From the NCBI RefSeq assembly GCF_964355755.1, contig NC_092670.1:41205388-41269387 (forward strand): 64,000 bases of DNA, written 5' to 3'. Of the stretch, positions 872-61,200 are shown piece after piece (within the stretch, counting starts at the first letter, position 1; each line of letters starts with the position of its first letter). Below the pieces are notes generated by a model. That model was not told where the DNA came from. It made no database searches and saw only the letters and a list, made by a program, of their open reading frames with translations. The translations under genes and the position numbers were made by a program. Origin of the DNA: Antedon mediterranea (lineage: Eukaryota; Animalia; Echinodermata).

Positions 872-3800
872 ATGGCTAGGTCAACTGCTGAAGAAATTGA
901 TGATGTTGCAGGCCTTTTTGCAGAATTTTGTGTCGTAACTGGAGCTTCGGAAGGTGAAGCACTTGAATATCTACAAAAAACAAATTGGCAAGTCGTGGTA
1001 AGTATAAAGCCAGCTAAAATCGGATAAAAACATCACTCACTCAAATCTCCATTATGAATTTGCATTAAATTAGTGATCGTATTGGTCGGCACACCTGTGG
1101 GGTGTCATGACATTTTAATAATACACACACGTCATAAGTAGATTTTTGTTATTGGAGGAGGACTGTGCATGGGTCACATGATATTATAAATGACAACTTC
1201 TATTGCACTTTTAATGATGTCATCGAGAGTGCAATGTTGTTCCATTGCTCTCAGTCTCATATAACCATTCATATGTATACTATCGGGTATACTAATGCGT
1301 CTGATTTATTTCTACTCAAAAAATACAAAAAAAGATGGCCGGCACACAAGATTTCTGAGACATAATCTGTTCAGAATATGCTAATTTTAAATACTAATGT
1401 TATTCTATGTTTTGTTATTGAGGATGCAATCAACCTATACTTTGATACAGTGGCAAACCAACCAGATGATGATGAGAATGGAACAAGCTCAAATTCAAAA
1501 GACAGGTATTTAATTCAGCTTTTAAAACAAGATTTTGGATCAAACAACAAAATAAATTTTGAAAAAGATACTGGCATGTGCATGTCTTTTATTTTTACAG
1601 TCTCAAAGTTGAAGGCAGTAAAGAAAAAGAAGACAAAAAGATAAAAATGATAACATGGAATATTGATGGTCTTGATGACCGGAATTTAATAGACAGAACA
1701 AAAGCAGTTTGTAGTATAATAGAGAGGTATATCAAGTGACTCATTTTAACATACAGGTGACCCTTGTACTCCTAACCAATCACAATCAACTAAATGCAGT
1801 TTGTAGTATTATAGAGAGTGATGACTCATTTCTATTAACATACAGGTGACTCTGGTACTCTCAACCAATCACAATCAACTAAATGCAGTTTGTAGTATTA
1901 TAGAGAGTGACTCATTTCTATTAACATACAGGTGACTCTGGTACTCTCAACCAACCACAACAATGTAGTTTAAACCATTCAGGATCTTCTTTCTTGAACA
2001 GTATGATAGAATCGGACTGGGTTCATGTTGAACATCTATCTCTAGTTTGTTTTATCATAAAGCTTGTTTTTTGTTTACCTATAAATTGTATATCTTTACT
2101 AATTATTGTATATCTTTACTAATTATTGTATTTATTTCATAAGACTTGAACCAGATATCATCTTTCTCCAAGAGGTCATAGTTGAAACAGCATCTCACAT
2201 CGAAAAACGATGCCAAAAATACAAAGTGCTACCAACAAGTGATGCTGCATACTTCACTGCTATGATGTTGAAAAAAAGTAGCGTTTCAATTCTTTCAAGT
2301 ATTGTTGATCCATTTGAGAATACAACGATGATGAGGGCGCTTCACAAAGTCAAGGTTTATCATTTTATTTTTTACTAATTTTAACATTAATGCTACTTTA
2401 CAAATATTTGATAACACAGTAGGTCTACAGTTCAACGTTTAGCTACACCAACAAAGTATTTCTGACAAATGTACAGTATTATTATATGTTGGGTACAATT
2501 GTTTTTGCTAGGTGAAATGTGCCGGAATAGAGTTCCTTCTGTTGAATTCTCATCTTGAAAGCACAAAAGATGCAAGTGGTAAACGCAAAAGACAGTTTCA
2601 GATGGCACTTCAAGAAATGTGCAATTCTAACGATGGTACTGTTGCCTTGTTTGGAGGGGACACCAACCTACGAGACAGTGAGGTAAGTGAACACCAACCT
2701 ACGTGACAGTGAGGTAAGTGAACACCAACCTACGAGACAGTGAGGTAAGTGAACACCAACCTACAGGACAGTGAGGTAAGTGAACACCAACCTACGTGAC
2801 AGTGAGGTAAGTGAACACCAACCTACGAGACAGTGAGGTAAGTGAACACCAACCTACAGGACAGTGAGGTAAGTGAACACCAACCTACGTGACAGTGAGG
2901 TAAGTGAACACCAACCTAAGAGACAGTGAGGTAAGTGAACACCAACCTACAGGACAGTGAGGTAAGTGAACACCAACCTACGTGACAGTGAGGTAAGTGA
3001 ACACCAACCTACGCGACAGTGAGGTAAGTGAACACCAACCTACGCGACAGTGAGGTAAGTGAACACCAACCTACAGGACAGTGAGGTAAGTGAACACCAA
3101 CCTACGTGACAGTGAGGTAAGTGAACACCAACCTACGTGACAGTGAGGTAAGTGAACACCAACCTACGCGACAGTGAGGTTAGTGAACACCAACCTACAG
3201 GACAGTGAGGTAAGTGAACACCAACCTACAGGACAGTGAGGTAAGTGAACACCAACCTACGTGACAGTGAGGTAAGTGAACACCAACCTACAGGACAGTG
3301 AGGTAAGTGAACACCAACCTATGAGACAGTGAGGTAAGTGAACACCAACCTACAGGACAGTGAGGTAAGTGAACACCAACCTACGAGACAGTGAGGTATT
3401 AGTGAACACCAACCTACAGGACAGTGAGGTAAGTGAACACCAACCTACAGGACAGTGAGGTAAGTGAACACCAACCTACAGGACAGTGAGGTAAGTGAAC
3501 ACCAACCTACGTGACAGTGAGGTAAGTGAACACCAACCTACGTGACAGTGAGGTAAGTCATAATGAACACAGTCCTCTGACAAACATACAGTGTACACAA
3601 GATGCTCAACATAAACAAATCTTGGGATTAGTAGCTGACCAACCTTCCACTCCACGTACTTGGTGCATAAAACAGGCAACAAGTCAGTGTATTTAGAAAG
3701 ATATTTGGAAAGACTATTAAAATAATAAATTTCATCATTTTAAAAATAGTTTATTAATTTAACAATGATTTTAGGTGAAAAGTATTGGAGGGTTACCTGG

Positions 3801-4059
3801 AGGAATTGTTGATCTATGGGAAATGTTTGGAAGTCCAGAAGAATCAAGATACACATGGGATGTCAAAAGAAACAATAACCTAGATTGGCAATTTGCAAGC
3901 AAACCAAGAATAAGATTTGATAGATTGTTCCTGAAACAAGCAAAGCAGCAACAAGTTCATCTGCAAACTTTTAAACTCATTGGAGACCAATGGATTTCAA
4001 CAGTTGAGCGATTTCCAAGTGATCATTTTGGCATTTACTGCGAGTTTAAAGTAAATTAA
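872..4059 (+). CDS. TDP2: Tyrosyl-DNA phosphodiesterase 2 (UBA-like + EEP domain), 6 exons
   Basis: Exons about 872-997, 1423-1505, 1601-1726, 2144-2354, 2512-2682 and 3775-4059, all GT-AG. Motifs ITWNIDGL, IFLQEV, SHLES, GGDTNLRD, RFDR and FPSDH. An in-frame upstream ATG at 794 is also possible. Confidence 0.93.
1704..1960 (+). repeat. ~90-bp x3 degenerate tandem repeat spanning the TDP2 exon 3 donor
   Basis: gcagtttgtagtat.atagagag recurs at about 1704, 1796 and 1885, followed by the same intronic sequence. Confidence 0.8.
2661..3558 (+). repeat. 31-bp x29 minisatellite containing the TDP2 exon 5 end and its 5' splice site
   Basis: Unit caccaacctac(gag/gtg/agg/gcg)acagtgag|gtaagtgaa; the first copy encodes TNLRDSE. 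Confidence 0.97.
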
Positions 4060-58200: not shown

Positions 58201-61200
58201 AAAAAAAAAATAAATGTTTGGTGTTTTATGCTCTTTTATGTTCATACATTATATTGTCGTTTAATCACCACTCTGTTTACTATTCTTACCATTGAAACAT
58301 AAAATTGTTGGTGTTTTATACCTCCTTGCTTGAGTGTTTAATATTCCACAGGGTCACTTGAGCTTGAGTGGGATTTCAATAGCTTAAAATGACATTTGAT
58401 AGGCGACAGTAGCCTGCAAAGTGGCTTATTTTGGTAGTTACAAAGCACTATGAAAGTAGATAGATAGTAACATTCCGTACTGTGTTTGATGACTGCAAAT
58501 CATAAATCGTAGCCTAATTTATATTAACATAATTGATATTTCATATGAATTTGTGGAAATAAAATTCTCCTTTATTTGATAGTCAACTTTAATTTTAAAA
58601 ACAGATGATATACTGTACAGTTAAGTTTATTTTGTAAAAAGTTGATATAAAATATGTTTAAATTTCATTGCAGAATCATCCAAAAGTTTGAAAGCAAGTA
58701 AATTTAATGAGGAAGTGTACGAGAATTGTTTATCTTCAACAGTTCATGATTTAGAAGGCACAATTGATGAATCTCTTGAAGATGAACTCAATGATTTGAT
58801 TAAGGAATCTCAGAAGTGCTTGGAGTTTTATATAGATAATACTGACTTAACAACAAACACTTTAAATGTACCAAAAACAACATCTTGTTTATTAACTGAA
58901 GAATATAAAGCAGAGGATGCACAAGTCAGTACAAATATAAATGTTGTTGAATGCAATGAATTATTAGAAAACAACATTACCAGAAGTGGAATCAATGAAT
59001 CAAATTCTGTTTTGACAGTTCGTAATTGTGAAAAAAGAAAGACAAAATTAGAAGAAGACCCTGGTGTTTTAAAATATTCTGATTTTAGATCTTCTGATCC
59101 AATCTTGCCAGATAGTTTAGAAAGTACTGACACAACTCCAAGGAATTCATTTGTGGGGAATACTACATCTGAATTAGAAGAAGACCCTGGTGTTTCAAAA
59201 TATTCTGATTTCAGATCTTCTGATCCAATCTTGCCAGATAGTTTAGAAAGTACTGACACAACTCCAAAGAATTCATTTGTGGGGAATACTACATCTGCAT
59301 TAGAAGAAGACCCTGGTGTTTCAAAATATTCTGATTTTAGATCTTCTGATCCAATCTTGCCAGATAGTTTAGAAAGTACTGACACAACTCCAAGGAATTC
59401 ATTTGTGGGGAATACTACATCTGAATTAGAAGAAGACCCTGGTGTTTTAAAATATTCAGATTTCAGATCTTCTGATCCAATCTTGCCAGATTGTTCAGAA
59501 AGTACTGACACCACTCCTAGGAATTCATTTTCAGAAGATTCCTCATCTGGGTTAGAAGAAGGAGACAACATGAGGTGGAAAAAGAAAGGAGACCATCCAG
59601 AGTATTCAAAGGAGGAGTTCATGGAGGAATATTCTAGACAAACAAGCTCTAAGAATTCACAGAAAAAAGCTAGAAATCCAGCTAGAAAGGACTCTGTTCA
59701 AAATAACAATGTATTTGAAGTTGAACAAACACAACAGGCCAGTGGCATGAACCAAAATACTACACAATTGAAACATTATCCTGACGCTTTAGAAAATAGA
59801 GAATTGACTACAAATTCAAGTGACTTACAGCACCAAAAGGTACAAACAGGATTTGGCGGAGGAATTTTTATTGCACCACCAAAACCACCAAGAATTCAGT
59901 CTCAACTGAGTGAATCGTCAATAGAAAATGATATACAGTCAAATCCACCTAAAACAAACAGGAGTATGAGTTTACCAACACCACCACCAAAGCCCAGGAG
60001 GAGATCAGTAAAAGATGAAAAGGGCAATGAGGCAGAACATTTGGGATCAGCTACACAAGTAGATATAAATCAATCACAAATTACTATGAGATCAATGGGT
60101 CAGCAGAATGGAAGTGACCTTGTTAGAAGGGATCATTCAGAAACAGACTACAGAACAGCAAACCATCAACTGTCTTGTGATGTGGGTGATTCACCAGTTG
60201 GAAACAACAATGAAGATAAAATAGTCATACGCAATAAACAAACAGACAGTTGTCGTTCAGAAATCGTTAAAGAACATCGTAAACAGAGTTTGAAACAATT
60301 AGCAACACCAGACTTTCCTGATGATGGTTATTTGAGAGATGACATTACCAATGATCAATATGAAGATTCTGATACTGATGATCAATACTTTGATGCTGAA
60401 ATGCACTTTCGTGGTTGGACGTGGGTGTACATTGGTGATGATGATGAATTAAATGCTAAGTTGCAGAGTCAAGGTCATGGTAAGTTTTAAAATGTTATCA
60501 TGCAGTAAAATATGGATACAATGCAATCAATTACTGTACAGTACAGTAGTACTAAAGTACCATACAGTATTTACTTATACATATGTTTTTTGTTATTATT
60601 GCTAGGGATATATATAATAATTTTAAAGTATTATAATCTTTTGTATTGATCATTTTAATCCCTTTTAAACAGATTATAAGAATAATAAAGAAGAAGATGA
60701 TGCGTTTAAAGATGATACAAGTTCTATCTCAACTACAGCCTCAGAAAAAGAGTTCAAAATACAAGTTAAAACAAGCATTGTACGAAAATGCTCTGAGATT
60801 GACTATCAAAGAGTGTCTATGTATGGTATGTAGAATATATGATAGTACAGCACAAGGTATTATTAATGTGTTAAAAGGTAATAATATTCATTTGTCTTCC
60901 AGCAAGGGAAAGAGATATATGTTTAAATAAGAAGAATGGTCTATTTGGTCTGCGTATTCAAAGAAGTCGCCCTGTTGTTGTGACTGAGGTTGATAAAGGT
61001 AATCATTGTTTTTTAAAGCCTAAGATATACTAAATGAACATTATTTGAAACTCATGGTACTGTATGGGTATTCAAAGAAGTCGCCCTGTTGTTGTGACTG
61101 AGGTTGATAAAGGTAATCATTGTTTTCTAAAGCCTACAATATACTAAATGAACATTATTTGAAACTCATGGTACTGTATGGGGAATTTCCATTCTAATAT

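Follow-up and report, generated by a model that had tools for sequence, protein, structure and literature searches.

Tandem repeats that copy exon borders in a 64,000-base window of the Antedon mediterranea genome

Are tandem repeats that copy the border of an exon put there by a process directed at exon ends, or are they what ordinary duplication leaves in genes with short introns, and which of the copied sites is then used? The question is raised by one 64,000-base stretch of Antedon mediterranea DNA (contig NC_092670.1; the "window"), which was chosen because it showed repeats of this kind and to which all counts below refer. It had been claimed in an original prediction that at least 12 repeats straddle gene boundaries and that seven of nine genes are affected. 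Ten of the twelve were found on modelled boundaries, and six of the nine genes could be verified as affected. We consider it probable that the arrays are minisatellites of recent origin, ten of them repeating the edge of an exon, and that they arose through unequal exchange and short tandem duplication of the ordinary kind and have been kept because splicing selects the shortest exon.

Nine gene models were built by hand. Together they contain 74 introns, all 74 of the GT-AG type, and each frame is open to a single stop. The models lack introns in untranslated regions (UTRs), and boundaries are modelled coding boundaries. The window is intron-rich with a GC content of ∼33%; the median intron is 167 bases after collapsing arrays, and the shortest is 77. 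None of the runs is labelled as RNA; X5, from organism A, and X9, from the related organism B, were treated as such on account of the splicing in their contigs. X6 is DNA of organism B, and the contigs of X1 match the window exactly. Read contigs were examined at two arrays, the acceptor array of the DDX54 gene (within the interval 28510-31619) and the end of the array in an HMG-CoA lyase-like gene (HMGCL). Note that assembled contigs lose rare forms, so that the RNA evidence concerns the main form only.

Repeats that contain an exon border

Arrays were found with Tandem Repeats Finder, excluding rows with a score below 50 or a period below 10, and with a finder of our own, which together gave 39 candidates. 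A modelled boundary falls within nine of these, at six donors, one acceptor and two stop codons. Exact short near-tandem duplicates outside arrays gave three matches, two of them in transposon-masked DNA and the third at a donor of the FMN reductase gene. Including this pair, the straddling repeats number ten, at seven donors, one acceptor and two stops. Their units measure 12-114 base pairs (bp), and adjacent units are 92-100% identical in the eight regular straddling arrays.

Two donor repeats lie on the plus strand of a TDP2-like gene. The array at intron 5 (2660..3558) has 29 copies of a 31-bp unit made of 22 exon and 9 intron bases, with the true donor at 2683; the top-scoring donor 9-mer is present in 27 of the 29 copies, and variants recur in multi-unit patterns. 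At intron 3 (1704..1960; unit about 84-89 bp) three donors had been predicted. The exon tail and intron head are indeed present three times, but the GT (1727) occurs only in copy 1 and is absent from copies 2 and 3, which leaves one donor. In HMGCL, intron 5 carries 18 copies of a 78-bp unit (17490..18893, minus strand; 68 exon and 10 intron bases), with the true donor at 18825 and one decoy that outscores it.

DDX54 (plus strand) has two donor arrays. That of intron 4 (24873..25262) consists of five copies of a 78-bp unit, 62 bases of which are exonic, with the true donor at 24936. The copies are 100% identical, in frame and free of stops (26 codons per unit), and all five donors score at the top of the window range. 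The array of intron 5 (25598..26817) consists of 22 copies of a 55-bp unit, each of which joins a GT..AG spacer of 24 bases to a pseudo-exon of 31 bases, with the true donor at 25631. Every 55-bp unit has a donor that scores 8.7 and an AG resembling an acceptor, whose score of 7.3 exceeds the 10th percentile for true acceptors, and the array comprises 21 pseudo-exons of 31 bases with 24-base spacers between them. Skipping alternate units would give introns of 79 bases, just over the window minimum of 77, and an in-frame stop variant is present in several units.

The remaining donor repeats have two copies each. In the gene encoding PDZ and two PH domains (PDZ-PH), a 114-bp unit (45 exon and 69 intron bases) is duplicated at intron 4 (60954..61182, plus strand; true donor 60999). 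The pair predicted at FMN reductase intron 1 (44050..44071, minus strand) is present only as a 10-base duplication at 12-base spacing. The decoy GT is retained in five donor arrays and in the FMN reductase pair, and is lost in both extra copies of TDP2 intron 3; its retention in the five intact donor arrays gives no sign of selection against decoys.

The only acceptor array is at DDX54 intron 8 (30511..30612, plus strand), where a 39-bp unit places in-frame AGs at 30525, 30564 and 30603. The stop codon of the Argonaute gene (5215-5213) lies in four copies of a 112-bp unit (4829..5276, minus strand) that contains the last 64 coding bases and 3' flank, and that of the FMN reductase gene (43123-43121) lies in five copies of a 47-bp unit (42923..43167, minus strand). 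Both arrayed stop codons fall within a donor-like GTAA word (5213-5217; 43119-43124), which in the FMN reductase copies scores 6.5 on the window donor matrix; there are only two instances, and chance may account for both. The copy numbers of TDP2 intron 5, HMGCL, both DDX54 donor arrays, PDZ-PH, the acceptor triplication and both stop arrays are those originally predicted.

Two predicted repeats could not be verified. A repeat assigned to a donor in the 5' UTR of a G-protein-coupled receptor (GPCR) gene (28673..28709, minus strand; 18 bp in two copies) is present and contains a strong donor-like 9-mer, but no RNA joint uses it among the contig pieces listed for 28510-31619; low-depth unspliced contigs at the repeat are consistent with DDX54 pre-mRNA. 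The supposed duplication of the HMGCL stop (15987..16118, minus strand) is not an array. It is a degenerate match of ∼20 bases, at a distance of 113 bases, split by a hairpin element.

Splice-site choice and array age

All six DDX54 introns within 28510-31619 are spliced as modelled in X5 and X9 contigs. At intron 8, contigs from both runs join 30421 to 30603, the last of the three acceptors, which scores 13.4 compared with 14.6 and 13.4 for the first two. The upstream acceptors would add 26 or 13 residues in frame, within the HRVGR motif, which we take to have a role in the helicase. Because these additions are in frame, nonsense-mediated decay (NMD) does not explain their absence from the main form. 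No new junctions were found in the RNA contigs of this interval, and a single 181-base intron spans the acceptor array. Two-step recursive removal of intron 8 may be compatible with the contigs.

For introns 4 and 5, record 10 of X5 has 657 bases upstream of DDX54 exon 6 in one piece, compared with 590 coding bases in exons 1-5, and it ends in 30 letters of the 55-mer variant that copies 1, 7 and 16 carry. Since a contig cannot pass through one 31-mer twice, we infer that introns 4 and 5 are each spliced from their first donor. The use of the first donor and the last acceptor appears to follow a shortest-exon rule, as expected from cross-exon recognition. In the part available of one study of human F7 (PMC1557585), oriented donor scanning is reported, which predicts use of the first donor.

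It had also been proposed that an intact protein requires the outermost site in every case. This is so for five donor repeats, where use of the second donor would introduce a premature stop (TDP2 intron 5, HMGCL, DDX54 intron 5, PDZ-PH and FMN reductase). It does not apply to the donors of DDX54 intron 4 or the acceptors of intron 8, which give in-frame insertions without a stop. In the stop arrays the first stop codon is used automatically.

The DNA of organism B (X6) is without the acceptor triplication, skipping 127 bases of the window with 27 letters between, and organism B splices identically. Its intron 8 is ∼81 bases long compared with 181 in the window, and the exons differ by a few percent. 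Given DNA of this organism that does not have the triplication, the acceptor array is likely to be younger than the split from organism B. In the 55-bp array of intron 5, most decoys have the TTT codon that is present in the exon of organism B (X9), and the window exon and copies 7 and 16 have TTC. This distribution of letters hints at exchange between the DDX54 exon end and the 55-bp copies.

Placement of the arrays and competing explanations

For placement tests, arrays were collapsed to one unit (55.8 kb) and the share of placements crossing a boundary was computed for each length, with wholly coding placements excluded. Six nulls resulted from applying two length rules to each of three backgrounds, namely the whole window, the window with transposons masked, and DNA no more than 300 bp from coding sequence (n = 27, 26 and 23). 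The 27 arrays are the 39 candidates less 4 coding, 4 likely transposon-borne and 5 weak or partial arrays, plus the FMN reductase donor pair. Note that the transposon mask is approximate and was made by eye and from contig depth.

Overlap with any boundary was observed 10 times and expected 4.0-8.8 times over the six nulls (P 0.003-0.36); in gene-proximal, transposon-masked DNA the figures are 10 of 23 and 7.3-8.8 (P 0.15-0.36). Donors and acceptors together gave 8, with 3.8-8.4 expected (P 0.024-0.65). Taken singly, donors gave 7 (1.9-4.1 expected, P 0.002-0.094), stops 2 (0.23-0.45 expected, P 0.02-0.08) and acceptors 1 (1.9-4.0 expected). With all 39 candidates retained, donors numbered 6 compared with 2.4 expected (P 0.027) and boundaries of any kind 9 compared with 5.2 (P 0.06). 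Because introns are short, a third or more of gene-proximal duplications would cross a boundary anyway, and boundary anchoring is therefore not established.

Arrays that touch no boundary, a class absent from the original prediction, comprise 12 in introns, 5 in intergenic or UTR sequence and 4 in coding sequence. The twelve wholly intronic arrays serve as a control class (spread over 2085..38361; beginning at 2085, 9803, 10311, 20276, 28096, 28673, 31620, 32759, 34428, 35409, 36695 and 38187, with no strand assigned; units of 16-65 bp). These and the five intergenic or UTR arrays match the straddling arrays in unit size and identity. Periods are divisible by 3 in all four coding arrays and in the sole acceptor array, as a purifying filter predicts.

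The preferred explanation would proceed in four steps. Duplications of 12-126 bp would be frequent in and near genes and would have no common end signature. Slippage or unequal exchange would then multiply the two copies, up to a total of 29, as the variant patterns suggest. The spliceosome would pick the first of the donors and the last of the acceptors, as it does at DDX54 intron 8 and presumably at introns 4 and 5, and the ribosome would halt at the first stop codon. Finally, selection would purge frame-breaking coding copies and most copies of acceptors and starts, so that the survivors would be intronic, in frame, or anchored at exon 3' ends. A copied donor would fall in the intron behind the true donor and be ignored, and a copied stop would lie behind the true stop without effect on the protein. 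A copied acceptor or start would place junk before the exon and is probably riskier; the sole survivor is in frame. The arrays would then likely be near-neutral passengers, of the kind known as "mirage" minisatellites or as the F7 IVS7 repeat. Of the processes originally proposed, a high duplication rate combined with a spliceosome that ignores decoys fits best, given that arrays make up 8,609 of the 64,000 bases and that the outer site is used wherever RNA could be tested.

Several results weigh against this explanation. Exon 3' ends (donors plus stops) contain 9 repeats compared with 2.1-4.5 expected, an excess under every null (P 0.0001-0.022), and exon 5' ends (acceptors plus starts) contain 1 compared with 2.1-4.6; the 9:1 split has a two-sided P of ∼0.02 (8:1 gave 0.039). 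If acceptor placements are assumed to be purged and the FMN reductase pair is left out, 3' ends still contain 8 compared with 2.9-4.5 (P 0.005-0.053); in the strictest case the values are 8 and 4.5 (P 0.053), and for donors alone 6 and 4.1 (P 0.21). By itself, purifying selection could push one class over the level of the intron interior only through renormalisation. All three of the longest arrays lie at donors (P 0.006 for length and 0.12 for copy number), and the sole objective short-duplicate match outside transposons is a donor. The RNA evidence on site choice covers DDX54 introns 4, 5 and 8 only, of eight splice-site repeats, and since contigs drop rare forms, low-level use of decoys is compatible with the data. 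Human 6-16 and CBS use the nearest decoys, as described in the part available of PMC1557585.

The placement counts and the array lengths favor a second explanation, that duplications arise, or are retained and expanded, preferentially where coding exons have their 3' ends. Such a preference could come from a lesion at donors that is coupled to transcription or to U1, from recombination concentrated on conserved exon sequence, or from anchoring, in which deletion cannot eliminate the array because its first unit is essential. Noncoding arrays also tend to be close to exons, with 13 of 17 at a distance of 300 bp or less (P 0.019) and 13 of 16 after transposon masking (P 0.10), and the human cases listed in the part available of PMC1557585 are all on the donor side. 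However, the window was picked by hand for its pattern and donors were grouped with stops after the data had been seen, and donors alone reach only P 0.09-0.23 under the strictest nulls. Within introns, arrays do not gather near the donor, and 9 of 12 are closer to the acceptor. No common end or microhomology signature was found in the eight straddlers examined, five of which overlap by 0-2 bases and three of which have longer partial copies. GC content did not correlate with copy number (rho 0.16, P 0.45). We regard a preference of this kind as rather unlikely. Its extension to a genome-wide, strand-aware bias, which would make or expand 30-120 bp duplications at coding-exon 3' ends in many genes and be tolerated through the shortest-exon rule, is a tentative proposal that we also doubt. 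Among the features of placement, the excess at exon 3' ends alone is robust, and it becomes borderline if acceptor copies are assumed to be purged. A process acting on exon ends, as originally suggested, may exist; total overlap fits the uniform null for gene-proximal, transposon-free DNA, and the 3'-end excess alone persists. The enrichment expected by the original prediction, checked within the window only, is likewise present for exon 3' ends and not clearly above chance for boundaries of any kind.

That the arrays are selected, copy-number-tunable regulators of splicing and NMD ("rheostats") is very improbable. Decoys are strong, with 27 of 29 copies in TDP2 intron 5 and all five in DDX54 intron 4 at the top of the donor range, and one X5 contig contains unspliced HMGCL intron 5 at a depth of 13.4 compared with 83 for the exon. 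However, HMGCL intron 6, which has no array, is also unspliced in an X5 contig (depth 9.7), and both in-frame DDX54 arrays show one main spliced form, which leaves this reading without support. The acceptor array is missing from a close relative that splices identically, and the decoys of TDP2 intron 3 have no GT. Stop arrays extend only 336 and ∼190 bases past the stop, with no known downstream intron, and purely intronic arrays outnumber those that straddle a boundary. The arrays had also been proposed as material for intron gain; none was seen in the RNA contigs, and the arrays merely lengthen introns and 3' flanks.

It might be objected that assembly artefacts account for the arrays or for the numbers of their copies, since the DDX54 intron 4 copies are 100% identical and X1 may come from the sample used for the assembly. 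However, X1 contigs over 28510-31619 show no difference from the window in four main pieces. At the DDX54 acceptor array X1 breaks into a 59-base contig with a depth of 591, compared with 295-331 in the flanks. In the bin at the HMGCL array end its depth is 4,595, compared with ∼280-300 for unique contigs (depth here does not measure copy number). Within the HMGCL array, a contig of X5, a run belonging to a different study, ends at 17519, the cut that a unit-to-unit branch predicts (a donor branch predicts 17529), which suggests that the array is present in the X5 sample, a second one of organism A, too. Organism B has sparse coverage where this array ends, and a stretch lacking coverage says nothing either way. 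The large arrays also share variants in repeating multi-unit patterns, which are typical of minisatellite turnover. An artefact is very unlikely.

Other features of the window and known systems

The TDP2-like gene (872..4059, plus strand) has six coding exons, two exons without a Pfam match, and a name that we assigned from motifs. The Argonaute gene (5213..14883, minus strand; Piwi) has 22 coding exons, of which exons 3, 5, 6 and 7 are matched by spliced contig pieces. Two candidate first exons (14317-14359 and 14847-14883) are both short, basic and RG-rich, and have equal phase. HMGCL (16096..21523, minus strand; HMGL-like) has eight coding exons. DDX54 (21662..33709, plus strand) has 17 coding exons and is supported by a DEAD match in Pfam, by spliced contigs and by end-to-end alignment with named homologs at ∼58% identity. 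In a quick tree of 35 of 121 proteins, its product clusters with those of a sea cucumber and three sea stars with 99% support in the Shimodaira-Hasegawa-like approximate likelihood ratio test (SH-aLRT). Nested in DDX54 intron 5 is a rhodopsin-family GPCR gene with a single coding exon (26920..27951, minus strand; 7tm_1), intact, antisense to DDX54 and directly behind the 55-bp array.

A PHTF-like gene (34350..39524, minus strand; 15 coding exons) has four arrays confined to introns and none across a boundary; its protein matches Pfam PF12129 below the cut-off, and its name is our assignment from motifs. The gene with a single coding exon at 40548..40937 (plus strand; Tmemb_185A), presumably TMEM60-like, has no array. 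The NADPH-dependent FMN reductase gene (43121..44196, minus strand; FMN_red) has three coding exons, and PDZ-PH (52292..63466, plus strand; PDZ and PH matches) has ten. Two gene pairs stand head to head with short common upstream regions, HMGCL with DDX54 (21523-21662) and the PHTF-like with the TMEM60-like gene (39524-40548).

In-frame coding repeats lie in low-complexity protein regions at 59046-59530 (126 bp, 3.8 copies), 13422-13547 (63 bp, two copies) and 33449-33694 (RGG-type, units of 18 and 15 bp). PDZ-PH intron 1 contains an element of the long interspersed nuclear element (LINE) type with endonuclease and reverse transcriptase frames (53376-58001), which is interrupted by a second reverse-transcriptase element with a 42-base poly(A) end at 57581-57622. 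The hairpin element (about 16010-16080) belongs to a family with extreme contig depth in both organisms at 16030-16085, and hairpin-like sequence was also seen by eye at 6715-6830 and 32310-32390. Two elements with inverted subterminal 16-bp arrays (21835-22135 with 22960-23070; 47590-47788 with 49141-49337) are probably DNA transposons.

Border-spanning repeats of this kind are already published for amphioxus and humans. In the parts available of two amphioxus studies (PMC3087553, PMC3902484), "mirage" minisatellites are described in Adh3, the globins BflGb6 and BflGb9, troponin C and PGBD5. Their units span the border and measure 10-160 bp, on the donor or the acceptor side, with several per genome region. 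Many of the copies, not all, keep AG/GT, splicing is normal, length is unstable, and the repeats are proposed as a source of intron gain. The repeats of the window resemble them in that seven at donors and one at an acceptor contain the exon-intron border, in their 12-114 bp units with 92-100% adjacent identity, and in keeping many, not all, GTs. Splicing is likewise undisturbed in its main form, directly at DDX54 intron 8 and indirectly at introns 4 and 5. They differ in occurring in an echinoderm, in six of nine neighboring genes, in including stop codons and in leaning 9:1 to exon 3' ends.

Donor-spanning human repeats of variable copy number include F7 IVS7 (37 bp), 6-16, CBS IVS13, lamin B2 and PDGF, and in F7, lamin B2 and PDGF the most upstream donor is used (PMC1557585, in the part available). 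As in F7, the first unit of the arrays described here holds the exon end and identical pseudo-donors follow. Units here are mostly exon (22 of 31, 68 of 78 and 62 of 78 bases), whereas 4 of 37 bases are exonic in F7; introns here are short, and the density per gene looks far higher than for the human repeats. Minisatellites at exon-intron borders are also described in human segmental duplications (PMC2812944, in the part available).

In the model of Rogers, as cited in the part available of PMC3087553, introns are gained through tandem duplication of AG/GT sites. Duplicated AG/GT sites are present in the DDX54 acceptor array, and the 55-bp unit has both an acceptor-like and a donor site; unlike in that model, no new intron or exon appears in the RNA contigs. 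No genome-wide test of a repeat bias at exon 3' ends was found in a search of the open-access literature at the level of listings. If the lean to 3' ends were true genome-wide, it would suggest that mutation or retention is biased in a way linked to gene structure. Such a bias would supply thousands of natural experiments with duplicated splice sites, together with a pool of pseudo-exons (for example, the 21 units in DDX54 intron 5). Gene predictors can misread arrays of this kind. The two in-frame, stop-free arrays of DDX54 are clean natural tests of splice-site choice, in which NMD cannot mask the use of decoys, and at both the shortest exon appears to be favored despite short introns (about 81 bases for intron 8 in the relative). 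The window thus extends repeats of the "mirage" kind to an echinoderm, at high density.

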